A stretch of DNA of 64,000 nt from Rhizobiaceae bacterium (GTDB taxonomy: Bacteria > Pseudomonadota > Alphaproteobacteria > Rhizobiales > Rhizobiaceae), in the NCBI GenBank assembly GCA_041742335.1, contig JBGSIT010000045.1, forward strand, positions 4,992-68,991, given 5' to 3'. The translations under genes were made by a program, and so were the position numbers. Numbering within the stretch: the stretch's first letter is position 1; the number at the start of each line of letters is the position of its first letter. The notes below the pieces were generated by a model, which ran no database searches, had not been told where the DNA came from, and saw nothing but the letters and a program-made list of their open reading frames with translations. Positions 34,467-53,025 of this stretch are shown piece after piece.

Positions 34467-34769
34467 TTGAGAGCGTCCCGGCAGACCGAGATTGAGGTGA
34501 CCCACGGGGTCGGGCTGCACGCCCGGCCGTCGGTGACCTTTACGCGGCTTGCCAAATCCTTTCCCTGCAGCATCGAGATCGAGGTGGATGGCAGCCAGGT
34601 CTGGATCAATGGCAAAAGCATCGTCAAGGTCATGGGCGCACGCATCCGCAAGGGCTCCATTCTGCGCATCCGGGCGGAAGGCATTCTGGCAAATGAGGCG
34701 GTGGCCGCGCTGGAAGACCTCGTCCGGCGGAATTTCGATGAGGAAAAGGGCCATGCAGTCAGGCCGTGA
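34467..34769 (+). CDS. HPr-family phosphocarrier protein
   Basis: The translation ..TEIEVTHGVGLHARPSVTFTRLAKSF.. contains the HPr active-site GLHARP block. There is no in-frame ATG. TTG 34467 is preceded by GGAGGCAGGA. Confidence 0.7.
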   Translation: MRASRQTEIEVTHGVGLHARPSVTFTRLAKSFPCSIEIEVDGSQVWINGKSIVKVMGARIRKGSILRIRAEGILANEAVAALEDLVRRNFDEEKGHAVRP

Positions 34770-36366
34770 CATCACCGGGCGCTGTGCTTCGCCGGGCTTT
34801 TATGTCGGTGAGGTTTTTCTGGCGACGCCGCTTGCGGACCGCTATGGCGATAGTGACGGGCCGGGCGTCGAACAAGCACGGCTTGACCGATCCGTTGCAA
34901 CCGCAATAGCGGAATTGACTGCATTGACGGGCGACAAGGATTCACAAAGCACCGCAATTTTAGAGTTCCAGATCGAGATGCTGATGGATCCGGAAATTCT
35001 TGAAGAGGCGAACAAATGCGTCAAACAGGGTCAAGGCGCGGAGCTTGCCTGGGCGACGGCGATGGATCGCTATGTCACCAGTTTCCAGACGTCGGATGAT
35101 GAGGCGGTGCGGGCGCGGGCCGCCGACATGACCGATATCCGCAACCGGGTGCTGGCGGCTTTGGCGGGGCGGACCTTTGTCGATTTTCCGGCAGGCTCCA
35201 TCTATGCCGCGCAGGATATGGAGCCCAGCCTGTTTTTGATGCATGACTGGTCGCGCGGCGGCGCTGTCGTGCTTTCCGCAGGCAGCACCTCCAGCCATGT
35301 GGCCATGCTGGCGCGCGCGCGGTCCATCCCCATGCTGGTGGCTACAGGACCGCAGGGGCTTGCAGATGGCGCAAGGCTGTTGGTCGATGCGAATTCCGGG
35401 CGGGCTTCGTTGTATGGCGGCGATGCGATTGCACCGGGCAATGCATCGGGTGACCCGGATGCCGCGGTTGCTGTTGTGCAGGGAAATGACGATGGCCACG
35501 TTCTGCTGGGTGACGGGCGCTCACTTTCGATCAGCGTCAACATCAATGACATGGGTGAAACCAGCCTTGTCGATCCCGGCTCCATCGCTGGCGTCGGGCT
35601 GGTCAGAAGCGAGTTTCTGCTGCGCTCTGCAGCCGACCTTGCCGATGAAGAGCGCCACTATGCGCTCTATCGCGCAGTGCTTGACTGGGCGGGCGGAAAG
35701 CCTGTGACCATTCGGCTGCTCGATCTTGGCGGCGACAAGCCGGTGGCAGGTATGGGGCCGACAGGGGGCGGCGGCCATTCAATGCTGGGCTTGCGCGGTA
35801 TTCGGTTCCTGCTCGCCAGGCCGGAGATCATGCGCATTCAGGCCCGCGCCCTCTTGCGGGCAGGTGCAGGCGGTCGCGTCAGGGTGCTGGTTCCGTTGGT
35901 GACGGTCAGTTCGGAGATGGAAGCGACGAGAAGGATTTTTGAAGACGAGGCCAAGGCGCTGGCGCATCGTGAGATCGACGTGAACGTGCCGCCCATCGGC
36001 ATGATGGTTGAAGTTCCGGCCGCCGCGCTGATGCTGGAGACTTTCGGCGTCGCGGATTTCTTTTCGCTCGGCACGAATGACCTTGCCCAATATATTGCCG
36101 CAGCGGGCCGGGACAATGACAGCGTCCAGCCTTTGATTGATTCGACAATGCCGGCCCTGCTGCGCATGATCGCCATGGTCGCTGAAAGCGCGCGGCGCAT
36201 GGGCAAGGACTTGTCGATCTGCGGTGATCTGGCTGGCGATCCGGATCGGCTTGCCGATTTGACCGGGGTCGGCCTGCTGCAGTTTTCTGTGGCGCCATCA
36301 AGGATCAAGCCGCTAAAGTCGGCTGTCGGCATGCTGGTTGCCGGCCAAAACAGAAAAGACGGGTGA
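34753..36366 (+). CDS. phosphoenolpyruvate--protein phosphotransferase (full-length Enzyme I homologue)
   Basis: The N-terminus ITGRCASPGF parallels E. coli EI (ISGILASPGI). The active-site His region (GSTSSHVAMLARARSIPMLV) and C-terminal PEP-utilising domain motifs (LGTNDLAQY, SICGDLAGD) are present. The ATG overlaps the HPr gene by 17 nt. Confidence 0.85.
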   Translation: MQSGRDITGRCASPGFYVGEVFLATPLADRYGDSDGPGVEQARLDRSVATAIAELTALTGDKDSQSTAILEFQIEMLMDPEILEEANKCVKQGQGAELAWATAMDRYVTSFQTSDDEAVRARAADMTDIRNRVLAALAGRTFVDFPAGSIYAAQDMEPSLFLMHDWSRGGAVVLSAGSTSSHVAMLARARSIPMLVATGPQGLADGARLLVDANSGRASLYGGDAIAPGNASGDPDAAVAVVQGNDDGHVLLGDGRSLSISVNINDMGETSLVDPGSIAGVGLVRSEFLLRSAADLADEERHYALYRAVLDWAGGKPVTIRLLDLGGDKPVAGMGPTGGGGHSMLGLRGIRFLLARPEIMRIQARALLRAGAGGRVRVLVPLVTVSSEMEATRRIFEDEAKALAHREIDVNVPPIGMMVEVPAAALMLETFGVADFFSLGTNDLAQYIAAAGRDNDSVQPLIDSTMPALLRMIAMVAESARRMGKDLSICGDLAGDPDRLADLTGVGLLQFSVAPSRIKPLKSAVGMLVAGQNRKDG

Positions 36367-36782
36367 GCAGTTTGGCACGCGAACCGATGGAAACCGCCAT
36401 AGTGGCCTACAAGACGATCCTGGCCGCCATCATCGACAATCGTCCGTCGGGCACTCGGCAAAGGCTGGCCGATGCCTTGGGGAAACATCGCAGTTTCGTC
36501 ACGCAAGTCACAAGTCCGGCCTATTCGACGCCGCTGCCGTCGCGCCATGTGGCCACCGTCTTCAAGGTTTGCCATTTCAGCCCGTCCGAACAGGAACGGT
36601 TCTTGAAGGCATATCAGGCGGCGCATCCGGACAAACTGCCCGACCTGCCAAACGGCGACGGCCTGCGGTCCTTGTCGCTGATGCTGCCTGATCTCAAGGA
36701 CGACAAGAAGAACCACCTGCTGGATGAGGCGGTCACTGAGTTCGTCCAGAAGCTTGCCGGCATTCTCGGCCAAAAGGAGTGA
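36363..36782 (+). CDS. small putative HTH DNA-binding protein (uncharacterised)
   Basis: About 131-139 aa. The segment RQRLADALGKHRSFVTQVTS looks like a helix-turn-helix. GTG 36363 overlaps the EI stop; ATG 36387 is an alternative start. I recognise no family. Confidence 0.5.
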   Translation: MSSLAREPMETAIVAYKTILAAIIDNRPSGTRQRLADALGKHRSFVTQVTSPAYSTPLPSRHVATVFKVCHFSPSEQERFLKAYQAAHPDKLPDLPNGDGLRSLSLMLPDLKDDKKNHLLDEAVTEFVQKLAGILGQKE

Positions 36783-36918
36783 AGGATGTCATGAACATTG
36801 GCTGTCCGGTTGCCTCGGTCCCATTGACAGGATCTGCGTTTTCGCAGTTTCAGCATGCGCGACTTGACGCATCTTGCAAGCATGCGCATTTTTGCTCTGC
36901 ACTGCTCCTGGAGGCGGA

Positions 36919-37920
36919 ATGAAAAAATTCATCAACAGGCCTGAACGCATGGCTGCCGAAAGCCTTGAAGGCTTCGTCGCGGTCCATGACGGGCTTGTCT
37001 GTTTCGGGGAGGGTCAGAAATTCGTTTGCCGAAAGACGCTTGTGCCGGGCAAGGTCGGATTGATATCCGGCGGGGGAGCGGGACACGAACCGCTTCACAC
37101 CGGGTTTATCGGTCGCGGAATGCTGGACGCCGCCTGCACCGGGCATATTTTCACCTCGCCGACGCCTGACCAGATCGTAGCCGCCATCCGCCATGTCGAT
37201 ACCGGCGCGGGTTGCCTGCTGATCGTCAAGAATTATGACGGCGATGTCATGAATTTTGAAATGGCGGCAGAAATGGTCGCCGGACAGCATCGGGTTGAAA
37301 CAGTCATTGTCGGTGACGATGTTGCCGGGCGATCCCTGCGCAGTTCCGGCCGCCGGGGTGTCGCGGGCACATTGGTAATCGAAAGACTGCTGGGTGCGAT
37401 GGCCGAAAGCGGCGCGGACCTCGAAAAGCTGAAAGCCTTTGCCGACCGTATCGCCCCGAGGATAAGATCAATGGGCGTTGCGCTGAACGGCGCCATCCTG
37501 CCGGCAACCGAAATTGCAACTTTCATTCTCGGACCTGACGAAATGGAAGTCGGGGTCGGCATTCACGGCGAACCGGGGCGGGCGCGGGCGACCTTTGCCG
37601 ATGCTGAAAGCATCATCGGCATGCTTGCGGATGCCATTATGGCCGATTTGCCGCAAGCCGGCCATGACAACACGCTGCTCTTCGTCAACGGTTTCGGCGC
37701 CACGCCGCCGGCCGAACTCTATCTTGCCTATCACATTGCGCGCGCCCGGCTTGAGCAAAGCGGCGTGGTCATCGGCCGCTCGCTGACCGGGACCTATGTG
37801 ACGTCGCTGGATACAGCCGGGCTCAGCCTGACGGTTGCGCTGATGGATGACGAAATGACGGCTCTGTGGGATCAGGAATTGGAGACGCCGGCCCTGCGAT
37901 GGAGCGCGGCGCATGGTTGA
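36919..37920 (+). CDS. dhaK: dihydroxyacetone kinase substrate-binding subunit DhaK (stand-alone)
   Basis: 333 aa with GGGAGHEP, LIVKNYDGDVMNF and GVGIHGEPG. GGAGG RBS lies before ATG 36919. Confidence 0.88.
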   Translation: MKKFINRPERMAAESLEGFVAVHDGLVCFGEGQKFVCRKTLVPGKVGLISGGGAGHEPLHTGFIGRGMLDAACTGHIFTSPTPDQIVAAIRHVDTGAGCLLIVKNYDGDVMNFEMAAEMVAGQHRVETVIVGDDVAGRSLRSSGRRGVAGTLVIERLLGAMAESGADLEKLKAFADRIAPRIRSMGVALNGAILPATEIATFILGPDEMEVGVGIHGEPGRARATFADAESIIGMLADAIMADLPQAGHDNTLLFVNGFGATPPAELYLAYHIARARLEQSGVVIGRSLTGTYVTSLDTAGLSLTVALMDDEMTALWDQELETPALRWSAAHG

Positions 37921-38494: not shown

Positions 38495-40141
38495 TCAGGC
38501 CAGCCCGAGCCAGCCGATCTGCTTGGCCTCAGCTTCGTTTTTCGCGTCTTCATAGCCTGCATCGGCGTAACGCATGACCCCGATTGACGTGTCATTTGTC
38601 AGCGACATTGAAAGCCGCATCCGGGCGGCTTCGGTGCCGTCGGCAATCAAGGTCACGCCCGCGCTGGTCATATAACCGGTATAGCCGCCGCCGCCGGAAT
38701 GGACGACCACCAGATCGGCCATGGATGAGCATAGCGCCATGGCGTCCAGCAATGGCCAGTCGGCAATGGCGTCCGATCCATCTTTCATGTTCTCGGTCAT
38801 GATATTAGGATGGGCCATGGAGCCGGCGTCAAGGTGATCGCGCGAAAAGGCAACCGGACTTTTCAGCCTGCCTGCGGCAACCAGATCATTGACCGCGACA
38901 GCAAGGTCGGTTCGCGCGCCATGGCCAAGCCAGGCAATACGGGCCGGAAGGCCCTCAAAAGGCACATTCTGCCGCGCCAGCCTGATCCAGTTGGTAACGA
39001 TCCGGTCATCGGGAAACATTTCAAGCACCAGATCGTCGATGATCCGGATATCGTCGGCATCGCCTGACAAGGCCATCCAGCGGAACGGTCCGATGGCGCG
39101 GCAGAAAAGCGGCCGCAAATAGGCCTCGGTGAAAATCGGAATGTCAAAGGCGTTTGTCACGCCGCCGTCGCGGGCATGGGTGCGGATGAGGTTGCCATTG
39201 TCAAACACCTCCGCACCTTTGGCCTGAAAATCCAGCATGGCGCGGACATGATCGACAATCGAAGCGCGGCTTTCTGCCATCAGCCTGGCAGGATCGCTTT
39301 TGCGCATGGCGCGCACCTGATCGAGACTGTAGCCCTTGGGAACATAGCCATAGACAAGATCGTGGGCCGCCGTCTGGTCGGTGACAATATCGGGCACGAT
39401 GCCGCGCCGGGCGATCTCGGGGTAGATCTCGGCGGCATTGCCGACCAGCGCAATGGAAACGGCTTCGCCTGCCTGGCAGGCAACGGCGATTTGCGTCAGC
39501 GCGCTGTCGAGGTCAGGCGCGATGCGGTCGACATAGCCGATGGCCTTGCGTTTTTGCGCCCGCTCGGGGTCGATATCGACACACAAGATGGCCGCCCCCG
39601 CCATGCGGCCTGCCAGCGGTTGAGCGCCTCCCATGCCGCCGAGGCCCGCAGTCAGGATGAACTTGCCTTTCAGCGATCCGTCAAACCGGTTTTCAGCGAT
39701 GCGCATGAAGATTTCATAGGTGCCCTGTATGACGCCCTGGCTGCCGATATATTGCCAGGCGCCGGCCGTCAGCCCGCCCCAGCAGATCAGGCCCTTGTCC
39801 TGCAGGTCATAAAAGGTCTCGGCCTTGGCCCATTGGCCGACAATGTTGCAATTGGCCATGATCACCAGCGGCGCCTGGGCGTGGGTCCTGATCAGGCCGA
39901 CAGGCTTGCCGGACTGGATGAGCAGGGTCTGGTCTTCCTCCATGGTCGTCAAGGTGCTGACGATCTTGTCATGGGCGGCCCAGTTGCGTGCGGCCTTGCC
40001 GAGCGCCGCATAGACGATCAGATTGTCAGGGTCCTCACCGACCGACAATACATTTTCCATGAGCCTGAGCAGCGATTCCTGACGCCAGCCCTTGGCGCGC
40101 AAGGCAGAACCGCCGGGTACCGGAAAACGCGGATTGGCCAT
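38495..40141 (-). CDS. urocanate hydratase family protein, proposed thiourocanate hydratase
   Basis: 548 aa. Urocanase blocks are present (GWRQE, YAALGKAARNW, LIQSGKPVG, GLTAGAWQYIGSQG, NAD site LTAGLGGMGGAQP). Its context is the ergothioneine-type operon. ATG 40141 is preferred to the ORF-track start at 40279. Confidence 0.8.
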   Translation of the reverse strand: MANPRFPVPGGSALRAKGWRQESLLRLMENVLSVGEDPDNLIVYAALGKAARNWAAHDKIVSTLTTMEEDQTLLIQSGKPVGLIRTHAQAPLVIMANCNIVGQWAKAETFYDLQDKGLICWGGLTAGAWQYIGSQGVIQGTYEIFMRIAENRFDGSLKGKFILTAGLGGMGGAQPLAGRMAGAAILCVDIDPERAQKRKAIGYVDRIAPDLDSALTQIAVACQAGEAVSIALVGNAAEIYPEIARRGIVPDIVTDQTAAHDLVYGYVPKGYSLDQVRAMRKSDPARLMAESRASIVDHVRAMLDFQAKGAEVFDNGNLIRTHARDGGVTNAFDIPIFTEAYLRPLFCRAIGPFRWMALSGDADDIRIIDDLVLEMFPDDRIVTNWIRLARQNVPFEGLPARIAWLGHGARTDLAVAVNDLVAAGRLKSPVAFSRDHLDAGSMAHPNIMTENMKDGSDAIADWPLLDAMALCSSMADLVVVHSGGGGYTGYMTSAGVTLIADGTEAARMRLSMSLTNDTSIGVMRYADAGYEDAKNEAEAKQIGWLGLA

Positions 40142-40163: not shown

Positions 40164-41258
40164 TTATCGGCCATCCAGCGCATAGCGGGCGATTTCGATG
40201 CCCATCGCCTTTTCGACCGATGGATAGACCGAAGCGTCCAGCACGCTGGAAGCCAGCGGTATGATCGACTTGGGCACATGGAGCACGTGGATCAGCATGG
40301 CTTCCTCCAACTGGCCGACCGAAAGCGGCTCGCCATCGGAATTCATTGAGGTGATGACATCGGGAAAAGTGGCAATGCGCTGGCCGTCGGCGGTGTCGAT
40401 GGCCATATATTCATTCATAACATGCAGCAGGCAGGCATTCTTTCCCTCGCCGATCGTGACCGTTCCTATGTCGAAGGCTTCTTTGGTATAGACCACCTGC
40501 TTGCGGGTGATGCGGCCTTCAACAAGGATCGTGCCGCCGGTTGTAGCGCAGATCGTGTCGATCACTGCGGCCCCGCCCTTCGGTTCAGCATCGAGAATGG
40601 CCTGACCCAGCTCCAGCGCAAGAGAAATGCCGCCAAGCGCTGCATGGGACTTCACATAGGACGCCGTCACCGGTGCACGCGCCGAGGCAATGAAGCCGCC
40701 GGACATGTCAGAAGCGGTCCGCAGGATCGGCGACACTTTCGCGGTTGCACCGCGCACCACCAGTTCGATATAGCGGTTTTCGGACCGATTGCCGCCAACC
40801 GCCGTCTGGATGGTTTGCTCGGGCGAACCGGCAAGCCCTATCGAGCCCATGTCGCCGGTCGGATGGGCGCGAATGTCACCGACGGCATCGACAACCTTGG
40901 CGCCCAGCGCCACCGCCGGCAGCCAGCCGTTCAGGGTCGAGGACCGGCCATTCTGGCCGACCATGAACCCGGCGATCTTCTTGCCGAGCGCTTCCTCAAG
41001 CAGTTGCGCGGCCTTGACATAATCCACCCCCTGCATTTCCCAGGCGGTGGTTCCGGCCGGCGCGCCGATGGCTGCTGCCGTAGCGATGATGGATTGGGGG
41101 TCCATTTCGTCAATCGAGACCAGTTCCGGCTTGCCCATGCGGACTGCGGCCCTGCCCAGCATGCGGCCATGTTCAACCCAGCCGCCGCCGCCGGCGGCAT
41201 AGATCGAGCCGCCGCGCACCGCAGCCTCGACGTCATCAATGGTCAGAATGCGTCCCAT
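40164..41258 (-). CDS. DUF917 family protein, proposed thiohydantoin-propionate desulfhydrase
   Basis: The N-terminus ..VRGGSIYAAGGGGW..AAAIGAP.. is typical of DUF917 (hydantoinase-associated family). The ATG shares 1 nt with the upstream stop (TGATG). Confidence 0.7.
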   Translation of the reverse strand: MGRILTIDDVEAAVRGGSIYAAGGGGWVEHGRMLGRAAVRMGKPELVSIDEMDPQSIIATAAAIGAPAGTTAWEMQGVDYVKAAQLLEEALGKKIAGFMVGQNGRSSTLNGWLPAVALGAKVVDAVGDIRAHPTGDMGSIGLAGSPEQTIQTAVGGNRSENRYIELVVRGATAKVSPILRTASDMSGGFIASARAPVTASYVKSHAALGGISLALELGQAILDAEPKGGAAVIDTICATTGGTILVEGRITRKQVVYTKEAFDIGTVTIGEGKNACLLHVMNEYMAIDTADGQRIATFPDVITSMNSDGEPLSVGQLEEAMLIHVLHVPKSIIPLASSVLDASVYPSVEKAMGIEIARYALDGR

Positions 41259-42538
41259 CAATTATTCTCCCCGGTTTCCTTGACCGGCTGATCGGCCCGG
41301 TCGATTTTCAATACCGTCTGCAGCAAGACTTCGGTGCCGGCCGCGACAGTAGAACTGTCCGCCCATTCCTCCGGCGTGTGGCTGCGCCCTCCACGGCAGG
41401 GAATGAAGATCATCGCCGCCGGCGCGACCCGCGCAAACCACGCCATGTCGTGGCCGGCGCCGGACGCCATCCGGCAAAAGGCGACGTCAAGTCCCTTGGC
41501 CGCCAGTTCGATATCGTTCAGCAACAGCGGATCCGAGGGAACCGGCGGGTTGTCGGAAATCACCTTGAAGGAAGCAACCTTGCTGCCTTTTTCCGCAGCC
41601 GCCTTTCCCGCCGATTCTTCAAGCTGCCCGATGAACCCAAGCATGTCCTGCCGAAATTCGGAGCGCGCATCAACCAGCAGGCGGGCGGTTGACGGAACCA
41701 CATTGGCGGCATTGGGTTCGATCCGGAATTCGCCCACCGTGGCGGCGAAATGTCCCTTGCAGCTTGCCGCAAGTTTCTGCGCGATGGTTTCAACAAGCAG
41801 AATGATGCCGCTGGCCGCGACAAGCGCATCGGCGCGGTTGAACATCGGCGTGGTCCCGGCATGGTCGGCGCGGCCTTCGATCAGGATTTCGATCCGGGTG
41901 ATGCCGGAAATCGCCGTGACGATGCCGATATCCAGATTGCCGTCTTCAAGCACCGGGCCTTGTTCGATGTGCAATTCCAGAAAGGCCCTTATATCGCTTC
42001 TGGTTGCAGCGGCAAGATTGTCGGGATCGCCGCCGACGGCTGCAATGCCGTCGCGAAGCGTCATCCCTTCAGCTTGTCGCTCAAGCCAGTCGGCAGGCAG
42101 CAAACCGGCTGCGATGCGGCTGCCGATGCAGGACACGCCGAAGATGCTGACCTCTTCGGCCAGGCAATCAATGACCTCGAAATCATGATCAAGAATAGTC
42201 CCCGTTTCGTGAAGGATGCGGGCGATTTCCAGCCCCGTCACCACGCCGGCGATTCCGTCGAAACGTCCGCCGTCCGGCACGGTATCGGAATGTGATCCCA
42301 CCATGATTGCGCCAAGTCCGGATTTTCTGCCGGCAAGTCGCCCGATCAGGTTGCCGCCGGCATCAATCCTTGTCACAAGGCCTGCCCGGCGCATGGCGCT
42401 CTCGACCCAGGCGCGACCATGAAGAAAAGTTGGCGTGAAGGCGCGGCGTGTCCATGGCCGTTCGGGGTCGGTCAATGCGGCGAGAGCCTTGATGTCGGCT
42501 TCGATCCTTTCGGTCCGAGCGGCAAGATTGGATTTCAT
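41258..42538 (-). CDS. M20 family Zn-dependent amidohydrolase (N-carbamoyl-L-amino-acid / allantoate amidohydrolase type)
   Basis: The blocks GGNLIGRLAG, MVGSHSDTVPDGGRFDG and the M20 dimerisation-domain pattern are present. The ATG overlaps the upstream stop (ATGA). Confidence 0.8.
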   Translation of the reverse strand: MKSNLAARTERIEADIKALAALTDPERPWTRRAFTPTFLHGRAWVESAMRRAGLVTRIDAGGNLIGRLAGRKSGLGAIMVGSHSDTVPDGGRFDGIAGVVTGLEIARILHETGTILDHDFEVIDCLAEEVSIFGVSCIGSRIAAGLLPADWLERQAEGMTLRDGIAAVGGDPDNLAAATRSDIRAFLELHIEQGPVLEDGNLDIGIVTAISGITRIEILIEGRADHAGTTPMFNRADALVAASGIILLVETIAQKLAASCKGHFAATVGEFRIEPNAANVVPSTARLLVDARSEFRQDMLGFIGQLEESAGKAAAEKGSKVASFKVISDNPPVPSDPLLLNDIELAAKGLDVAFCRMASGAGHDMAWFARVAPAAMIFIPCRGGRSHTPEEWADSSTVAAGTEVLLQTVLKIDRADQPVKETGENN

Positions 42539-43908
42539 CGCCGAACCTCCAGGCTTGCCGGCGGCCGGACAAATTTCCCCGTTCCGGGTTCGGAGATCAC
42601 CTTGGCCCCGTCAAAGGCCAGTTCGCCACGCAGATAAGTGGCCGAAACCCGCCAGGGCAGGGTGATGCCGTTATAGGGCGACCAGTCGACAATGGTATTG
42701 CCGCTTTTCGCTGCGTCATAGACATAGGGCTCAGGCGCCATGACGGTGATGTCGGCATCGCGACCGACTGCCAATGCACCCTTGACATGATCGATGCGAA
42801 AATGCCGGGCCGGATTTTCCGCCATCAAGCGGGCGGCATGGGTGAGCGAAATATTGCGCTCCAGCGCGCCTTTGACAAAAAGCGGCACCATGGCTTCCAG
42901 ACCGGGCACGCCGGATGCATTGGCCAGCATGTCCGGATTGGTCTTGCGGTTTTCCGACCAGGCGACATGATCGGTCGACACAAGCGTGACATTGCCGTTG
43001 GCGACGTGACGCCAAAGCGCCTCGACCTCGGCGCGCGGTCTGATCGGCGGATTGATCTTGGCCTTGCCGCCAAGGCGGGCGACGTCATTTTCTTCGTCCA
43101 ATGTCAGATAATGAATGCAGCATTCCACAGTGGCCGGGTGCCCGCCGGCGCGGTAGGCCGCCGCCATCTCATAGCCGCGACCCAGCGAGCAATGCACCAC
43201 ATGGGCCGGGCATCCGGTGGCCACCCCGGTCTCATAGATTTCGGCCATGGCGATCAGTTCGGTCATCGGCGGTCGCGATAATCCGTGCGCCCGCCAGTCG
43301 CTGATGCCGGAGGCCTTGACCCGGGCCATGTGGATATCCACCGCCTCATGGTTTTCGTTATGAACGCCCGCAGCAAGACCCGTCGGTGCGATGGCTGCGA
43401 AACAATCGTGCAGCAGTGCCGGGTTGATGCGCGGAAAACGCTTTGGATCGGTGCCGAAGGTGGAAAATTTGAACGCGGCAACACCTGCTGTGACCATTTC
43501 AGCAATCCGCGCCGGGCCTTCCTCTGGATCAATCGTGCCGTAAAGCGCGAAATCCACGCGCGCCTGCTTGCCGGCATGATCGATCTTGCGTCGAACGGCC
43601 TCCGCCGAGCAGACCAGATTGCCTTCGTCATAGGGCATGTCGACAATCGTTGTCACACCGCCGCTGGCCGCAGCGCGGGTTGACCAGATGAAGTCCTCCT
43701 GATTCTTCTGGCTGAGCGAATGAACCTGTGCGTCGATGGCGCCGGGAAGGATCATGGCATCGCCAAGCAAATGGCGTTGCCGGCCCGCAGGCGGCACGCC
43801 CTGTCCGATCATTGCCACTTTGCCATCCCTGATGGCAACGAAACCGCCGGGAATGATCCGGTCGGCAAGGATGACGGCGCCTGCCAGGACGAGATCAAAA
43901 TCGGACAT
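42535..43908 (-). CDS. cyclic amidohydrolase (hydantoinase/allantoinase/dihydropyrimidinase superfamily)
   Basis: The amidohydrolase fold pattern is present (LPGAIDAQVHS, AAFKFS, VHNEN, VVHCS, STDHV). AAGGAG RBS lies upstream. Confidence 0.8.
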   Translation of the reverse strand: MSDFDLVLAGAVILADRIIPGGFVAIRDGKVAMIGQGVPPAGRQRHLLGDAMILPGAIDAQVHSLSQKNQEDFIWSTRAAASGGVTTIVDMPYDEGNLVCSAEAVRRKIDHAGKQARVDFALYGTIDPEEGPARIAEMVTAGVAAFKFSTFGTDPKRFPRINPALLHDCFAAIAPTGLAAGVHNENHEAVDIHMARVKASGISDWRAHGLSRPPMTELIAMAEIYETGVATGCPAHVVHCSLGRGYEMAAAYRAGGHPATVECCIHYLTLDEENDVARLGGKAKINPPIRPRAEVEALWRHVANGNVTLVSTDHVAWSENRKTNPDMLANASGVPGLEAMVPLFVKGALERNISLTHAARLMAENPARHFRIDHVKGALAVGRDADITVMAPEPYVYDAAKSGNTIVDWSPYNGITLPWRVSATYLRGELAFDGAKVISEPGTGKFVRPPASLEVRR

Positions 43909-43946: not shown

Positions 43947-45494
43947 TCAGATCGGATTGCTGAGCGCGAATTGCGTGTCAAATCCGACCATCGGCGCAAG
44001 GCGGACCAGCGAATCTGAAAAGCGCTCCGACCTGAAATCATTGAATATGGCGTCCATGTCGCCCGAAAGCGGCCGGTCTTCGCCGTAAAAATCAGAATGG
44101 GCCCTTACCGAGTCATGTACGAACCCGGCGACGCCTCCCGGCTTGTCTTCCATCAGGTCCATGGCTTGTGCCGCAAACAGCGCCTCAAGTGCCGCCAATT
44201 GCAACAGCGTTTCCACGGCGGAGTCGAAACGCTCGATGATCAGCGGCAGGAACGCGGCCTCGTCCTCCATGCCGTCGGCCATGACCAGCAGTTGGGCCGA
44301 TATCGGCTGGACCTTGGAAACGATGCGGCTGAAGAGATCAGCCGCCAGCTTGACGATCGGCCCATAGCCGGTGGTGACATTGTTGTTGGGCCGCAGATTG
44401 ACCGGCAGGCCGCGAATCTTGCCATTGGCCATCAGGACGCAGCGATTGAGGCAATTGCGGGCCGCATGGGCAATGCCCTGGCTTGCCGATTGCATTCCGA
44501 GACTGACGGAAAGCGGCAGCGAACCGCCGGAGGAAAGGACCCGTCCGTCCAGCACCACCGGATTGTCGTCGCTGCTGCCGGTCGCCAGTTTGACAGCGCG
44601 GCCGGCATTGGAAAATACGTCGATGACCGCACCGAAAATCTGCGGCATCATCCTGAGAGACAGCGGATCATGCAGCCGGGTTACCGGCTGGATATTGGAA
44701 ATCTGCGCCTGTTCAAACAGCCACGAGCCGACGGCTGCTTCACTGGGCGTCCCGATCCGGGCAGCCACTTCCAAAGGATCGCGGGATGCGCCCATGGCGC
44801 AGGCGCTTGCCAGGCCCACCGCCAGCAGCACCCGAAGGGTTCGGGCGGCATTGATCAAGCCGTGGGCGGCGCCCGAATAGGCAATGGCGTTGGAGCTGAT
44901 CGACGACAGGCTGTCCTTGGGCGCCAACCGCAATGTCGTAAGACCCGCCAAACGGAAGGCGGTTTCGGTTGGAACCCTCTTTCCCTGATAGAAGACCTCA
45001 CCCATGCCGGTGAGCACAGTGCCGATCTGGCCCATCAGGCCGATATCGGCGCAACCGATCGACCCGGTTCGGCGCACATAGGGCACGATGTCGGCATTGA
45101 GAAGCGCGATCAGGGCGGTGACCAGTTCGGCCGTGCATCCGGTCTGCCCGGTCAGCGCGGTATTGACCCGTATGGCGATGGCCGAGCGGATGACTTCGGA
45201 TGAAAAAGGTTCGCCTATGCCGAAGTGATGGGCCTTGACCAGTCCGTCATTGAAGGCGGCCAGGTCTTCAGCTCCGAGGATCATTTCCTTCATGGCGCCG
45301 ACACCAGTATTGGCGCCGTAGATAAAGACGCCGGAACTGATGACCCGCTCGAAATCACAGCGACTGGCGCGCACCAGCTTCATGCAGTCCTCGTCGGGTG
45401 CCACCAGCACCTCGCCGCTGCCTATCAGTTTCAACGCAGCAAAGCTTAATGGTTCAGCACTCAACGACAGGCAGGCCTTGGTTCGGATCATCAT
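43947..45494 (-). CDS. aromatic amino-acid ammonia-lyase family protein without the MIO triad, proposed ergothionase
   Basis: The HAL/PAL fold pattern is present (IYGANTGVG Tyr loop, later SSDDNP-type block). At the position of GS(V/I)GASGDL the sequence reads GSIGCADIG (codons at 45053-45045). Confidence 0.75.
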   Translation of the reverse strand: MMIRTKACLSLSAEPLSFAALKLIGSGEVLVAPDEDCMKLVRASRCDFERVISSGVFIYGANTGVGAMKEMILGAEDLAAFNDGLVKAHHFGIGEPFSSEVIRSAIAIRVNTALTGQTGCTAELVTALIALLNADIVPYVRRTGSIGCADIGLMGQIGTVLTGMGEVFYQGKRVPTETAFRLAGLTTLRLAPKDSLSSISSNAIAYSGAAHGLINAARTLRVLLAVGLASACAMGASRDPLEVAARIGTPSEAAVGSWLFEQAQISNIQPVTRLHDPLSLRMMPQIFGAVIDVFSNAGRAVKLATGSSDDNPVVLDGRVLSSGGSLPLSVSLGMQSASQGIAHAARNCLNRCVLMANGKIRGLPVNLRPNNNVTTGYGPIVKLAADLFSRIVSKVQPISAQLLVMADGMEDEAAFLPLIIERFDSAVETLLQLAALEALFAAQAMDLMEDKPGGVAGFVHDSVRAHSDFYGEDRPLSGDMDAIFNDFRSERFSDSLVRLAPMVGFDTQFALSNPI

Positions 45495-45614: not shown

Positions 45615-46850
45615 TTGGATCTGTCCGCCATAGTCACGGGCGTCGCCGTTCTGGAGGACGTATCGATCCGCGGCGCAAGCCGCAGGCTCGGCAAGCCGGT
45701 GGCAAGCGTCCATGCGGCATTAGACCGGCTGGAGAAGGGCCTTGCCACGGATCTGGTTTTCAGGACAGGCAACTCCATTACGCTCACCCTCGACGCCGAG
45801 CGGTTCCTGACGCCGCTCATGCGCATTCGCCAGCTTTGCGAATTGCTTTGGACGCCCGCGGCCGGACGGAAGCACGATGATTGCGGCCGCGCGGTTGATT
45901 GCGCTTTGTCGCTAAAAGTCCTGCAGCGCTTCAATGAAACCATCCGCGCAGGAAGCATTCGCGGCAGCGCCAGGCGGTTGGGTATCGGTCAGCCGCAATT
46001 GTCGCGTCAGTTGCAGAGAATGGAAAAGGAACTGGGAGCGGCGCTTTTTCACCGCGATGCCGGCGGCATCAGCCTGACGGACGACGGCAAGCGGGTACAG
46101 GAAGCCGCCATCTCGATCATGGCCATCTGGAATGACCTTGTCTCGCCGGCATCGAGCAATTTCAGCCGCACCAACCGTACGATCCATATCGGTTCGGTTG
46201 TGCCCTCAGGGCATGAAAGCCAGGTGGCGCGGCTGCTGGCCACCTTGTTTGCCCGCTGGGAAGGCGTGCGCCGCCGTCATCATCTTTCCTTGAAAAGCAC
46301 CTTGGCGGAAGAGTTGGTCAGCGAGTTGAAGGCAGGCCGGCTTGATCTGGCCATTCTCGATACCGAGGCCGGACCGCTGGGGCTGGACGGCTTGTCGCTT
46401 TCTCGATCCCGCCTCGCACTGATCGGTTATCCCGGTCTTGATACCAGCCGTTCGCCGGATGTGATCATGAGGGAGGAAAAAGTCGCTGTGCCCAGTCGCC
46501 GAAGCGGGTTGAGGCAGGCCGTCAGTGACCTGATGAAGCAGGCAAATGGCGGTGCGGAGGGAACCCCGGACAACTTCGTGGAGATTGATTCCATCCCGGT
46601 CATCGTCAACCTCGTGATCCATCACCGCTTTGTGACGGTCTTGCCCCTGACATCGGTCGCAGGGCTGGAGTCCGGCCTCACAGTCATTGAACTTTCCCCG
46701 CATCTTGATTTGCCGCTCTGGCTGGTCTGGCCGCGCGCCCGGGCGCTGGGCCGGGTTCTTGATGACATTCTCGATTGCCTTGCCGGATTTGAAACGGTGC
46801 CGTCACTGCCTTCGGATCCAGGACTTCGGCGAATCCAGACAAGCCTTTGA
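45615..46850 (+). CDS. LysR family transcriptional regulator with a duplicated N-terminal HTH domain
   Basis: 411 aa. Residues about 2-65 and about 100-160 each fit the LysR HTH pattern. A normal substrate-binding domain follows. The start is TTG 45615. It is divergent from the lyase operon. Confidence 0.65.
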   Translation: MDLSAIVTGVAVLEDVSIRGASRRLGKPVASVHAALDRLEKGLATDLVFRTGNSITLTLDAERFLTPLMRIRQLCELLWTPAAGRKHDDCGRAVDCALSLKVLQRFNETIRAGSIRGSARRLGIGQPQLSRQLQRMEKELGAALFHRDAGGISLTDDGKRVQEAAISIMAIWNDLVSPASSNFSRTNRTIHIGSVVPSGHESQVARLLATLFARWEGVRRRHHLSLKSTLAEELVSELKAGRLDLAILDTEAGPLGLDGLSLSRSRLALIGYPGLDTSRSPDVIMREEKVAVPSRRSGLRQAVSDLMKQANGGAEGTPDNFVEIDSIPVIVNLVIHHRFVTVLPLTSVAGLESGLTVIELSPHLDLPLWLVWPRARALGRVLDDILDCLAGFETVPSLPSDPGLRRIQTSL

Positions 46851-46962: not shown

Positions 46963-47766
46963 ATGACACGCAGGACAATCACCGAAGATTGGGGCAGGTA
47001 TCGCAAGGGCGAATTCTTTGTCAGCAACAATGTCTGGAACCGGGGCGACCTGGTCAACGGTCAGGATTACAGCCAGTCCATCCATTACAATACCAATACG
47101 CTTGATCGCGGAGTGCGGTTCAACTGGAACTGGCCGGTCTCCGATCACGTATTGGCCTATCCGGAAATCGTCGCGGGTTACAAGCCTTGGGATCGATTGG
47201 GATCTGGAAATCTCACTGCGAAAATCAAGGACATCGATGTGTTCGATGTCCGTTTCGATTTTGATATCGCCGGAAAGACCGGCAATTTCAATGTTGCATT
47301 CGATCTCTGGCTGACAACCAAGCCTAAGGCGGGCGCTGGCAGCATTACCACCGAATTGATGGTCTGGCTGCATGACGGGAAATTGACGCCGGCTGGCGAT
47401 CTGGTCGGGCACTATGACCACAAGGGATTTCACGCCAGCATCTATTTTGCCGAGAACTTTGGTGATGCCAGCGGCAATTCAAGCAAGGGCTGGAATTATA
47501 TTGCACTTGAATCCGACAGCGAAATCCGCAAGGACACAATCGATTTTGCCCATTTGCTGCACAATCTCCAAAAACGCGGACTGATCGCCGGCTCGGATTA
47601 TGTCAACGGTTATGAGTTTGGAGCGGAGGTGACCGGCAACAAGGGCTCGCTCGCCATTCACCGTCTGCACCATGAATTCGAAGCCGGCAATGCCGCGCGA
47701 ACAGTCGACAACCACGGGTCGAATATGGCGCATCAGTTTGCGCAAGCTGACGATTTCCTGTTTTGA
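46963..47766 (+). CDS. glycoside hydrolase family 12-like protein
   Basis: GH12-like blocks are present: VSNNVWN, AYPEIV.G, NVAFDLWL, TELMVWL (nucleophile Glu) and GYEFGAEVTG (acid/base Glu). There is no N-terminal signal peptide. GC is visibly lower than in the neighbours. Confidence 0.55.
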   Translation: MTRRTITEDWGRYRKGEFFVSNNVWNRGDLVNGQDYSQSIHYNTNTLDRGVRFNWNWPVSDHVLAYPEIVAGYKPWDRLGSGNLTAKIKDIDVFDVRFDFDIAGKTGNFNVAFDLWLTTKPKAGAGSITTELMVWLHDGKLTPAGDLVGHYDHKGFHASIYFAENFGDASGNSSKGWNYIALESDSEIRKDTIDFAHLLHNLQKRGLIAGSDYVNGYEFGAEVTGNKGSLAIHRLHHEFEAGNAARTVDNHGSNMAHQFAQADDFLF

Positions 47767-49142: not shown

Positions 49143-49967
49143 TCACAGCATTGTGCGGACCGTCCAGAGTTCGGCAAACAACACCACGTCGAGCATGCGG
49201 CGCAAATAGGAGACGCCGGAAGTTCCCCCCGTGCCACGCTTCAGCCCGATCACCCTTTCAACCGTGGTGACATGGTTGAAGCGCCACCGGCGGAAATAAT
49301 CCTCGAAATCAACCAGCTTTTCCGCCAGTTCATAAAGCGCCCAATGGGTTTCAGGATCACGGTAGATCACAGCCCAGGCCGCAAGCAGCTTGTCAGTGTC
49401 ATGAATTTGCCCGCCATCGGCGTCCAGGCCGAGGCCGACGTCGAAGCCGTTGCGGTCAAGCAAGCGGATTGCCTCGTCATAGAGGCTGGGCAGGGCCAGG
49501 ATCGCCTGCAACTCGGCTGTGATGATCGGGTCGTGGGCATGCGGCTTGAGCAGTGCCGGATTGCGGTTGCCGACCAGAAATTCAATCGCCCGGTATTGCC
49601 ATGACTGGAAGCCGGACGACTGGCCCAAAGCGTCGCGAAAGCTGGTATATTCGCTCGGCGTCATGGTCCTGAGCACATCCCAGGCGCTGTTGAGTTGCTC
49701 GAATATCCGCGCCACACGCGCCAGCATCTTGAAGGCCGGCTGCAGATTGTCGTTTGCCAGGGCTTTCATGGCCGCCCGGATTTCGTGGATGGCCAGTTTC
49801 ATCCAGAGTTCCGACGTCTGGTGCTGAATGATGAACAGCATCTCGTCATGGGCTGGCGAAAGCGGAGTCTGTGACGTCAGCAATTGGTCCAACCCAAGGT
49901 AATCCGAATAGGACATGCGGGTCGAAAAATCGAGTTCCGCGCCTTCGGTGGACGGGTCCTTGCTCAT
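49143..49967 (-). CDS. kynA: tryptophan 2,3-dioxygenase
   Basis: The block [34 protein letters not shown] is the classic TDO signature. Confidence 0.92.
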
Positions 49968-51163
49968 GTTACCTTGCTCCGGGTCTTGAATTCAGGCCGG
50001 TCCCAGCGGCGCTCGCTCATGACACGCTCGAGCCTGACGGCTGCCTCAACAATATCGGCGGGGCTGACATAAAGCGGCGTCAGGCCGAAGCGGATGATGT
50101 CGGGCGCGCGGAAATCGCCAATCACGCCATCGGCAATCAACGCCTGCATGATTGCATAGCCCTGCGGATGGCGAAAGGAAACCTGCGATCCGCGCCGGGC
50201 TGGGTCACGCGGCGAGGCGAGCACAAGATCCGGGCATCGGGCTTCAACTTCGCCGATGAAAAGCTCGGACAACTCGGTGGAACGGGCTCTGACAGCGGCA
50301 AGGTCGATACCGTCCCAAACCGTCAAGGCTGCTTCAAGGGCAAGCATGGAAAGCACCGGCGGCGTGCCGGTCTGCATCCTGTGGATGGACGGGGCAGGGC
50401 GGTAATCAAGGTCGAAAAGAAATGGCGCTTCATGGCCGAACCAGCCCGACAGCGCCGGATTGATCTTGCCTTCCAGGCCGGGTCGGACATAGATGAAAGC
50501 CGGCGCGCCGGGTCCGCCATTGAGATATTTGTAGCCGCATCCGATGGCAAAATCGGCGCCCGCGCCCGTCAGGTCCACCGGCAGCGCGCCGGCCGAATGG
50601 GCGAGATCCCATATGGTCACGACGCCTGCGGCCCTGGCTTTCGCTGTCAGTGCGGCCATGTCATGCAGCCGGCCGGTGGCGTAGTCCACCTCTGTCAGCA
50701 TCAGGACCGCGACATTTTCATCGATGCTTCCGGCGACTTCGTCCGGCGCGACAAGCTTCAGTTCATGGCCTTTGGCCAAGGTCCTGATGACACCGTCGGC
50801 GATATAGAGATCGGTGGGGAAATTGCCGGTATCGGACAGGATGATCTTCCTGTCGCCGGTCAATTGCAGTGCCGACGTCAAGGCCTTGAAGAGATTGATC
50901 GAGGTGGAATCGCCTGCAACGATTGAACCTTCAGGCGCGCCGATCAACCTGCCGATGGCATCGCCGATCCGGTTGGGCAGGTCAACCCAGTTGCGGGTGT
51001 TCCAGGCGCGGATCAGGTCCTTGCCCCAGCCTTCGTCGATTTCCCGTGCCACCGCCGTTCGCGCCGCAACCGGCAATGCGCCCAGCGAGTTGCCGTCCAG
51101 ATAGACAACGCCTTCCGGCAGCTCGAACAATGCCCTTGTCTTGTCAAACGGATCCGGTTTCAT
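49964..51163 (-). CDS. kynU: kynureninase
   Basis: The blocks [11 protein letters not shown] and [14 protein letters not shown] (PLP lysine region) are present. Both gene junctions are ATGA overlaps. Confidence 0.92.
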
Positions 51164-52788
51164 GATGAGGTACTTTCGCTCCGCAACTGGAATCTCTGTA
51201 TTTTGCCGGTCTGGGTCTTGGGCAGACTTTCGACAAATTTGATCGACCGCGGATATTTGTAAGGTGCAATCACCGCCTTGACGTGATTTTGCAGCTTCAG
51301 CTTCAGCACTTCATCGCCAAGGATGCCTGTCGCCAGTACGACATGGGCCTGGACGATCTGGCCGCGCTCCTCGTCAGAAACGCCGATCACCGCGCATTCC
51401 AGAACGGCGTCGTGGGAGAGCAGCGCCGCTTCAACTTCCGGCCCGGCTATATTGTAGCCCGATGAAACAATCATGTCGTCGTTGCGGGCGGCGAAATGGA
51501 AGCGGCCTTCGGCATCCTGGAAGAAAGCGTCGCCCGTCAGGTTCCAGCCGTCGCGGACATAATCGGACTGGCGGGGGTCCGCCAGATAGCGGCAACCCGT
51601 CGGGCCGCGCACGGCCAGCCGTCCCACCACGCCCGTGGGGACTTCGTTCATATCGGCGTCGACGATCTTTGCGGTGTAGCCGGTGACCGGCTTTCCGGTT
51701 GATCCGGGCGCACGGTCGTCCAGCCGGTTGGAGATGAAGATATGCAACATTTCGGTGGCCCCGATGCCATCGATAATCGGCTTGCCGGTTTTGGTTTCCC
51801 AGCTTTCATAGACTGGCGCAGGCAAGGTCTCGCCAGCCGAAACGGCGATGCGCAGGGAAGAAAGATCGGCACCTTCCTCCATGGCCGCCAGCATGGCCCG
51901 ATAAGCCGTCGGCGCGGTGAAGCTGATGGTCGCCTTATAGGTTTCGATGATCGAAACCATATTGGGCGGCGAGGCGGTTTCCAGCAGTGCCGCGCAGGCG
52001 CCAAACCGCAAGGGGAAAATCGCAAGGCCGCCCAGCCCGAAGGTAAAGGCCAGCGGCGGCGAACCCACGAACACATCGGTCGGCTGTACACCGAGGACTT
52101 CCTTGGCATAGCCATCGGCAATGATCAGCAAATCGCGATGGAAATGCATGGTGGCCTTGGGAAGTCCGGTGGTTCCCGATGTGAATCCCAACAGCGCAAC
52201 GTCGTCGCGACCGGTAAGGACCGCTTCAAACCGCACGGGCTTGTCCAGCGCGATCCGGTCCAGTTCGGCATCATGATTGGCCGTGCCGTCAAAGCCGATG
52301 ACGGTTTTAAGAAACTTGCTGGCCTTGGCGGAAAGGACGAGTTCCTCCATCAGGCGCGTATCGCACAACGCCATGGTGATTTCGGCCTTGTCGATAATCT
52401 TGCTCAATTCGCCCGAACGCAACATCGGCATGGTGTTGACGACCACCGCGCCCGCTTTGGTGGCGGCCAGCCAGCAGGCGACCATGGCCGGATTGTTGGC
52501 CGAACGGATCAGCACGCGATTGCCCGGCTTCAGGCCGTAATGCTCGACAAGCGCATAGGCCAGCCGGTTGGACCAGTCGGTCAGTTCCTTGTAGGTCCGC
52601 CTGCGACCATTGCCGATCAAGGCGGTATTGTCGCCAAAACCCTGCTCGACCATGCGGTCGGTCAATTCGACGGCGACATTGAGATATTCGGGATATTCAA
52701 ATCCCTCGAGATTGAAAACCGGCCAATCCGGTTGCGGCGGGAGATTGTCGCGGGCGAAGGTGTCGACATGTGCTGAAGGACCTAGCAT
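51160..52788 (-). CDS. aryl-CoA ligase, 2-aminobenzoate(anthranilate)/benzoate-CoA ligase type
   Basis: AMP-binding motifs are present (FTSGTTGLPKATMH, IDGIGATEM). The N-terminus SAHVDTFARDNLPPQPDWP resembles proteins annotated as 2-aminobenzoate-CoA ligase. ATG 52788 is preferred to the ORF-track start at 52920. Confidence 0.7.
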   Translation of the reverse strand: MLGPSAHVDTFARDNLPPQPDWPVFNLEGFEYPEYLNVAVELTDRMVEQGFGDNTALIGNGRRRTYKELTDWSNRLAYALVEHYGLKPGNRVLIRSANNPAMVACWLAATKAGAVVVNTMPMLRSGELSKIIDKAEITMALCDTRLMEELVLSAKASKFLKTVIGFDGTANHDAELDRIALDKPVRFEAVLTGRDDVALLGFTSGTTGLPKATMHFHRDLLIIADGYAKEVLGVQPTDVFVGSPPLAFTFGLGGLAIFPLRFGACAALLETASPPNMVSIIETYKATISFTAPTAYRAMLAAMEEGADLSSLRIAVSAGETLPAPVYESWETKTGKPIIDGIGATEMLHIFISNRLDDRAPGSTGKPVTGYTAKIVDADMNEVPTGVVGRLAVRGPTGCRYLADPRQSDYVRDGWNLTGDAFFQDAEGRFHFAARNDDMIVSSGYNIAGPEVEAALLSHDAVLECAVIGVSDEERGQIVQAHVVLATGILGDEVLKLKLQNHVKAVIAPYKYPRSIKFVESLPKTQTGKIQRFQLRSESTSS

Positions 52789-53025
52789 CCGGTCAATTCT
52801 CCCCTTGGCTTGACGGCCTTGCACATTGACGAAGCGGCGGCAATTGCCACCTGCAATCGGGCTGGTCTTGAATCCGTCTGCGGCCTTGTTCAAGCTATCA
52901 GAACGCACAAAGATTTGCACAGGCGATAATAAACTTCAAGCTTAAAGTTTATTTGGAATCCAGCTTTGCCGATGTCTTGAATTGCTTATGCAGCAATGTC
53001 ATGACTGGGTAACGGGGAGACCGAA

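Follow-up and report, generated by a model that had tools for sequence, protein, structure and literature searches.

The finding of an enzyme with the fold of histidine ammonia-lyase (HAL) but without the residues from which the cofactor of that family is made raises the question of which reaction it catalyzes. The question is posed here by a stretch of 64,000 nucleotides from Rhizobiaceae bacterium (GenBank assembly GCA_041742335.1, contig JBGSIT010000045.1, positions 4,992 to 68,991 of the forward strand), called the window hereafter, in which the longest open reading frame (ORF) covering the altered site lies at positions 43947-45494 of the minus strand and encodes a lyase of 515 amino acids. 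This gene, designated ertA, is predicted to encode ergothionase (ergothioneine trimethylammonia-lyase), that is, a cytoplasmic enzyme of the HAL fold which has no 4-methylideneimidazole-5-one (MIO) cofactor and heads an operon for the breakdown of ergothioneine; a probability of about 0.9 is given to this reading. The genomic context is the decisive evidence for it, while the activity and the residue roles proposed below are predictions from homology to the ergothionase of Treponema denticola.

ErtA is a full-length aromatic-amino-acid lyase of family PF00221 (E 3.9e-82), and its loop peptide is RRTGSIGCADIGLMG. On the minus strand the codons ggt tgc gcc gat specify Gly147 (45056-45054), Cys148 (45053-45051), Ala149 (45050-45048) and Asp150 (45047-45045). 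An earlier reading made from the sequence only had placed TGC GCC GAT at 45053-45045 and had stated that the Tyr loop, IYGANTGVG, is retained, and both statements agree with the nucleotide sequence and with the translation, in which the Tyr loop is FIYGANTGVG. The same reading had put Cys-Ala-Asp in the place of the MIO-forming Ala-Ser-Gly, and the loss of the triad stands but the register does not. In every alignment made, namely HMMER against the HAL of Pseudomonas putida, BLASTP against the HutH protein of the same genome, MAFFT with 147 representatives and an alignment of six sequences, with about 30 MIO-bearing representatives included in the comparison, the loop of ErtA is one residue shorter than that of HAL and G-C-A-D is aligned to G-A-S-G-D. 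Cys148 and Ala149 thus occupy the place of Ala-Ser-Gly with a deletion of one residue, and Asp150 is the conserved Asp after the triad (HAL Asp145), not a substitute for the Gly. No aligner placed an Ala-Ser-Gly elsewhere in register, the outcome that would have spoken against the earlier reading; the string ASG occurs 0 times in all 515 residues, which rules out a triad in another register. The loop of the T. denticola ergothionase, SSIGEGDITTLS, aligns to ErtA without any gap.

The motif is not peculiar to the window. When a collection with one genome per species was scanned for the clade pattern, 340 stretches matched, 297 of which encode a relative, mostly in rhizobia and other Hyphomicrobiales, and the best 80 of those relatives are the related loci referred to throughout. 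Of the 121 database proteins closest to ErtA, 119 contain GSIGCAD, as do 80/80 of the related loci, and these counts rule out chance and a sequencing or frameshift artefact as sources of the motif.

In addition, the family scores separate ErtA from genuine histidine ammonia-lyases and place it nearest to the known ergothionase. On the NCBIfam hutH models ErtA gains 213 bits against a cut-off of 539 (TIGR01225) and 221 bits against a cut-off of 524 (NF006871), both below the threshold, and its top sequence match in the Protein Data Bank (PDB) is the T. denticola ergothionase 6s7j (E 7.5e-43). A model of ErtA was predicted by AlphaFold (AF2) from an alignment of 18 sequences, with a mean predicted local distance difference test (pLDDT) of 91.3, and was compared with known structures by Foldseek. 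For this predicted model the best fold match is again 6s7j, with a template-modelling (TM) score of 0.90-0.91 by the query and 0.94 by the target and a root-mean-square deviation (rmsd) of 1.7-1.9 Å, while HALs give TM scores of 0.87-0.88 and an rmsd of 2.6-2.9 Å (for 1b8f, 0.87 and 2.9 Å). The pLDDT falls to 71 over residues 141-150 and to 54 over residues 401-410.

The active-site residues point in the same direction. Tyr59 (45318-45320 of the minus strand), the predicted acceptor of the β-proton, corresponds in the alignment to the catalytic Tyr of the T. denticola enzyme (6s7j) and to HAL Tyr53, both of which lie in a YG(L/I)N(R/T)G loop, and is invariant in the G-C-A-D clade. Lys382 (44349-44351 of the minus strand), which is also invariant there, is aligned with Lys384 of the T. 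denticola enzyme, a residue with a role in the formation and binding of the thiolate that distinguishes ergothionases from histidine-betaine lyases (bioRxiv 10.64898/2026.04.22.720169). Leu278 (44661-44663 of the minus strand) takes the position of HAL Tyr280, so that DPLS is read where HAL has DPYS, and this is a second signature of the change from HAL to MIO-less enzymes. Across the clade Tyr59, Lys69, His89, Arg281, Asn311, Lys382 and Glu410 are invariant or nearly so, and Lys69 is missing from the HALs of the six-sequence alignment. T. denticola residue numbers other than Lys384 are tentative assignments from our own mapping (PDB sequence index plus one).

A family-wide signature was then derived by aligning the proteins from an exhaustive HMMER search of 1.84 billion representatives. 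In HALs with the Ala-Ser-Gly triad the loop is GASGD, Tyr280 is part of a DPYS motif, and the residue aligned with T. denticola Lys384 is not Lys. The MIO-less relatives nearly all have a short G-x-x-D loop, Leu or Ile at Tyr280 and, mostly, Lys at the Lys384 position, these three changes travel together, and ErtA carries them all. The first residue of the loop is E, M, A, V, Q, T, S, D or C among the Lys-bearing MIO-less clades and is therefore unlikely to be universally catalytic, and within the G-C-A-D clade it is fixed as Cys.

The genes which follow ertA give the argument its weight. The gene is the first of five on the same strand, in the order ertA-D-E-C-B, and all four downstream products pass the cut-offs of NCBIfam equivalog models. 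They are ertD (42535-43908), a hydantoin-5-propionate amidohydrolase (NF058538, 789 bits, cut-off 600); ertE (41258-42538), an N-carbamyl-L-glutamate amidohydrolase (NF058540, 580 bits, cut-off 520), whose start overlaps the stop of ertD by 4 nt; ertC (40164-41261), a thiohydantoin desulfurase of the DUF917 / S-Me-THD fold (NF058529, 583 bits, cut-off 440), whose start overlaps the stop of ertE by 4 nt; and ertB (38495-40141), a thiourocanate hydratase (NF058530, 1028 bits, cut-off 930), which scores 693 bits on the hutU model. Translation of ertB probably starts from the ATG at 40141, which AGGAGA precedes at a distance of 7 nt, and its longest ORF extends to 40279. The five genes are probably co-transcribed, and a scan of the ert operon for promoters and terminators gave no more sites than shuffled sequence. 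The D-x-H-x-H usual for cyclic amidohydrolases is D-A-Q-V-H in ErtD (43720-43728 of the minus strand); in the related loci 59/59 ErtD homologues share the Gln, so it is a trait of the family.

The five-step pathway of ergothioneine degradation has been reconstituted in vitro (Beliaeva, Leisinger & Seebeck 2021, as cited in PMC9732360). In the window a named gene is lacking for step 1 of this pathway only, and the MIO-less lyase occupies precisely that place, which supports its assignment as ergothionase. By analogy with the T. denticola enzyme, Tyr59 would take the β-proton of ergothioneine, the imidazole ring would be held or stabilized in its 2-thiolate form by Lys382 and bound at its nitrogens by His89 and Glu410, and the carboxylate would be bound by Arg281 and Asn311 together with His275, after which trimethylamine would leave to give thiourocanate. 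An electrophilic cofactor would not be needed because, as a leaving group, trimethylamine is far superior to ammonia. Thiourocanate would then be processed by the hydratase ErtB, the desulfurase ErtC and the amidohydrolases ErtD and ErtE, by way of hydantoin-5-propionate and N-carbamyl-glutamate, to glutamate. EgtD was not found in the host genome, which is 94.6% complete, therefore ergothioneine would be scavenged and not made, and the bacterium may feed on the scavenged compound as a nutrient.

The only further PF00221 gene of the host genome, a canonical hutH with the loop GSVGASGDLAPL and the motif DPYCIRC, is located on another contig next to hutI- and hutG-like genes, and encodes a protein 27% identical to ErtA by BLASTP. 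The reading of the lyase as ergothionase, proposed earlier from the missing MIO triad, is thus supported by the 6s7j match, the kept Tyr and Lys, the ert operon and a separate hutH with Ala-Ser-Gly. The accompanying claim that MIO loss alone separates the gene from hutH agrees with the presence of a distinct hutH, but this loss does not single out ergothionase, since it is shared by ergothionases and other MIO-less trimethylammonia-lyases. It is Lys at the Lys384 position together with the operon context that sets ergothionase apart from the histidine-betaine lyases.

The same arrangement is distributed widely among related bacteria. The 80 related loci belong almost all to Rhizobium, Neorhizobium, Devosia, Chthonobacter, Shinella and Salinarimonas, and in 58-60 of them the lyase gene is followed by ertD-ertE-ertC-ertB in the order of the window. 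In Chthonobacter a betaine-type (OpuAC) ATP-binding cassette (ABC) importer, checked with Pfam, is inserted between ertA and ertD, and a similar gap of about 4-5 kb between these two genes in Devosia and Salinarimonas probably houses the same importer. In the maximum-likelihood tree the G-C-A-D proteins form one clade with an SH-like approximate likelihood ratio test (SH-aLRT) value of 100 and a stem length of 0.79.

In about 20 of the 80 loci the G-C-A-D lyase is not beside ertBCDE. Five genomes with such a lone lyase were inspected, and a thiourocanate hydratase above the cut-off is encoded elsewhere in four of the five and a fragmented copy in the fifth. In Rhizobium wenxiniae (locus L004, 8989-10563 of the plus strand) the lyase gene comes after fpg, ubiE and ubiB, and the hydratase gene is on another contig. 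In Shinella sp. UYSO24 (G005, contig C8, 166053-167600) the lyase is intact and the sole hydratase-like gene with a nearly full score is split by in-frame TGA stops, which may reflect a decaying pathway or an assembly error.

Among the characterized systems, the T. denticola ergothionase (PDB 6s7j and 6s7q; Maurer, Leisinger, Lim & Seebeck 2019, as cited in PMC13405746) has in common with ErtA the HAL fold (TM 0.90-0.94), the lack of MIO, the loop shorter by one residue, the catalytic Tyr, the Lys384 equivalent, the Glu, His, Arg and Asn ligands and Leu at HAL Tyr280. The two enzymes differ in the loop, which is G-E-G-D in T. denticola and G-C-A-D in ErtA, and in the Lys motif, QKT and (V/I)KL, respectively, and ertA, unlike the T. 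denticola gene, is part of a five-gene aerobic catabolic operon. HutH (P. putida HAL, PDB 1b8f; TIGR01225) likewise resembles ErtA in its fold, its Tyr loop and its His, Arg, Asn and Glu substrate ligands, whereas ErtA has no Ala-Ser-Gly and hence no MIO, has Leu for Tyr280 and has gained two Lys residues (K69 and K382).

The ErtA-ErtE system for ergothioneine utilization of Burkholderia sp. HME13 (Muramatsu et al. 2013, as cited in PMC13405746) consists of the same five enzyme families as the operon of the window. A protein search of a plasmid collection gave only three close matches, all generically named, and pointed to a Burkholderia cluster. This cluster, on a replicon of Burkholderia sp. 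JSH-S8 (plasmid CP110394.1), has the same five families and a LysR gene, but its gene order is different: it comprises LysR, DUF917, a urocanate-hydratase homologue, a transporter of the major facilitator superfamily (MFS), the lyase and divergent amidohydrolases. Its lyase is 29% identical to ErtA, has a G-E-A-D loop and begins with a signal-peptide-like N-terminus. In this lyase (locus L089, 7881-9512 of the plus strand) the hydrophobic run ends in A-F-A, and the MFS transporter gene is located just upstream.

The histidine-betaine trimethylammonia-lyases of Shewanella (Swoo_3913 and SO_3299) are MIO-less enzymes of the HAL fold as well and also eliminate trimethylamine. These are periplasmic enzymes coupled to flavocytochrome reductases, and in them the position of Lys384 is taken by Asn or Gln (bioRxiv 10.1101/2025.08.13.670108 and 10.64898/2026.04.22.720169). 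ErtA, in contrast, keeps the Lys, has no signal peptide and belongs to a desulfurizing catabolism; neither a neutral residue at the Lys384 position nor a coupling to urocanate or methyl-urocanate, both expected of a histidine-betaine lyase, was found for it.

However, several observations weigh against the assignment of ErtA as ergothionase. In the NCBIfam scan no ergothionase-named model matched ErtA, its sequence match to HAL (E 1.4e-40) is nearly as good as that to 6s7j (7.5e-43), and its identity to 6s7j by Foldseek is merely 25-26%. It is 29% identical to the lyase of the Burkholderia cluster and 24-27% to Treponema-like representatives, whose loop is G-E-G-D, and the enzymes of the G-C-A-D clade could not be tied here to any published assay. 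The orthologues of ErtA have 64-78% identity among one another, but the ErtA of the window has only 51-57% identity to them, so that it is 10-13 identity points more diverged than they are among themselves, while ErtB, ErtC and ErtD are at par with their orthologues (71-86%). At the carboxylate-binding position of HAL Gln277 it has His275 (44670-44672 of the minus strand), where 80/80 of the related loci have Gln, although several other G-C-A-D representatives also have His. No importer gene was found within the ert operon of the window; the best match of the host genome to the OpuAC binding protein of the Chthonobacter operon is 38% identical and is on another contig. Moreover, the T. denticola ergothionase reportedly accepts ergothioneine sulfonic acid also, and the exact substrate range of ErtA is thus a prediction.

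The last points bear on the alternative that survives best, in which the compound from which ErtA eliminates trimethylamine would be not ergothioneine but a related betaine (hercynine, S-methyl-ergothioneine, ergothioneine sulfonate or selenoneine). MIO-less relatives of other specificity do exist, for histidine betaine in S. woodyi and for N(pi)-methyl histidine betaine in S. oneidensis (SO_3299), and the great distance of the G-C-A-D clade from the characterized ergothionases, the faster divergence of ErtA in comparison with its operon partners and His275 would all suit such a change of substrate. A pathway for ergothioneine sulfonate is reported from a rhizobial bacterium, A. radiobacter (Yan et al. 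2022, as cited in PMC13405746). Against this, Lys382 is kept and invariant where the histidine-betaine lyases have Asn or Gln, the desulfurase of the operon makes sense for a sulfur-bearing substrate only, and ErtB and ErtC reach 1028 and 583 bits on the thiourocanate and thiohydantoin models versus 750 and just 282 bits on the S-methyl variant models, so a related betaine as the true substrate is considered distinctly unlikely.

That ErtA is a catalytically dead or regulatory paralogue of HAL kept in the operon is very improbable: a large clade, evidently under purifying selection, keeps without variation all the residues on which characterized ergothionases depend, and the operon without its lyase would miss the first step because the sole other PF00221 gene of the genome is the canonical hutH, even though the loss of the cofactor triad and the low pLDDT over residues 141-150 and 401-410 are what such a pseudoenzyme might display. 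It is hardly credible that ErtA is a histidine or aromatic amino acid ammonia-lyase with an unconventional electrophile made from Gly147-Cys148-Ala149, the Cys losing H2S as Ser loses water, for, although Cys148 is nearly invariant in the clade and a few MIO-bearing HALs have A-C-G-D, in which Cys replaces Ser in a full triad, ErtA lacks the ring-closing Gly that supplies the amide nitrogen, has a shortened loop without Ala-Ser-Gly and no Tyr280 (DPYS), scores 213 bits against the hutH equivalog cut-off of 539, lies in an ert and not a hut context with a genuine hutH elsewhere in the genome, and has Lys-bearing MIO-less kin with E, M, A, V, Q, T, S or D at the Cys148 position, which argues against a fixed catalytic role.

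With ErtA taken as ergothionase, the near invariance of Cys148 within the clade may still have a meaning. It is conceivable, though rather unlikely, that Cys148 is functional there, its thiol contacting the leaving trimethylammonium or the sulfur of the substrate or conferring redox sensitivity, in which case the clade would be a third type of ergothionase, distinct in mechanism or in substrate and, for example, tuned to oxidized ergothioneine species.

Published work already covers ergothionase, with its structure and its lack of MIO, as well as the Ert pathway, and ErtA is an unannotated member of a divergent clade. The chief value of the present analysis is accordingly for annotation: the named members of the clade, mainly from Alphaproteobacteria, are labelled in databases merely as aromatic amino acid lyase or histidine ammonia-lyase, while the four partners already have names in NCBIfam. 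From BLAST results it was concluded in 2026 that only a few genera have ergothionase (PMC13405746), and the carriers from soil and rhizosphere described here show that such BLAST counts miss divergent, unnamed clades. The features by which these can be recognized are ert neighbours, Lys at both T. denticola positions 64 and 384, Leu in place of HAL Tyr280, and a loop of the form G-x-x-D, shorter by one residue than G-A-S-G-D. A literature search for thiourocanate hydratase combined with ergothioneine gave no match.

Divergent from ertA, a gene at 45615-46850 of the plus strand encodes a LysR-family regulator, which presumably regulates the ert operon. It has two tandem HTH_1 domains, at residues 8-61 (33 bits when scanned alone) and 101-159, followed by a single effector domain. 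A LysR protein of 398 amino acids with 47% identity and the same double helix-turn-helix (HTH) is encoded at the same position in Chthonobacter albigriseus (locus L009, 7691-8887 of the minus strand), therefore the duplication is conserved and is not an artefact of the start codon.

As for the remaining surroundings, a gene for a homologue of phosphoenolpyruvate (PEP)-utilising enzyme I and a Dak1 (dihydroxyacetone kinase) gene are located upstream of the ert operon in the window (34549-37920 of the plus strand). An ORF for a glycoside hydrolase of the GH12 family (46963-47766 of the plus strand) lies between the LysR gene and the gene of a DAO-type FAD oxidoreductase. Furthermore, genes for tryptophan 2,3-dioxygenase, kynureninase and an AMP-binding protein of the acyl/aryl-CoA ligase type are arranged head to tail at 49143-52920 of the minus strand.

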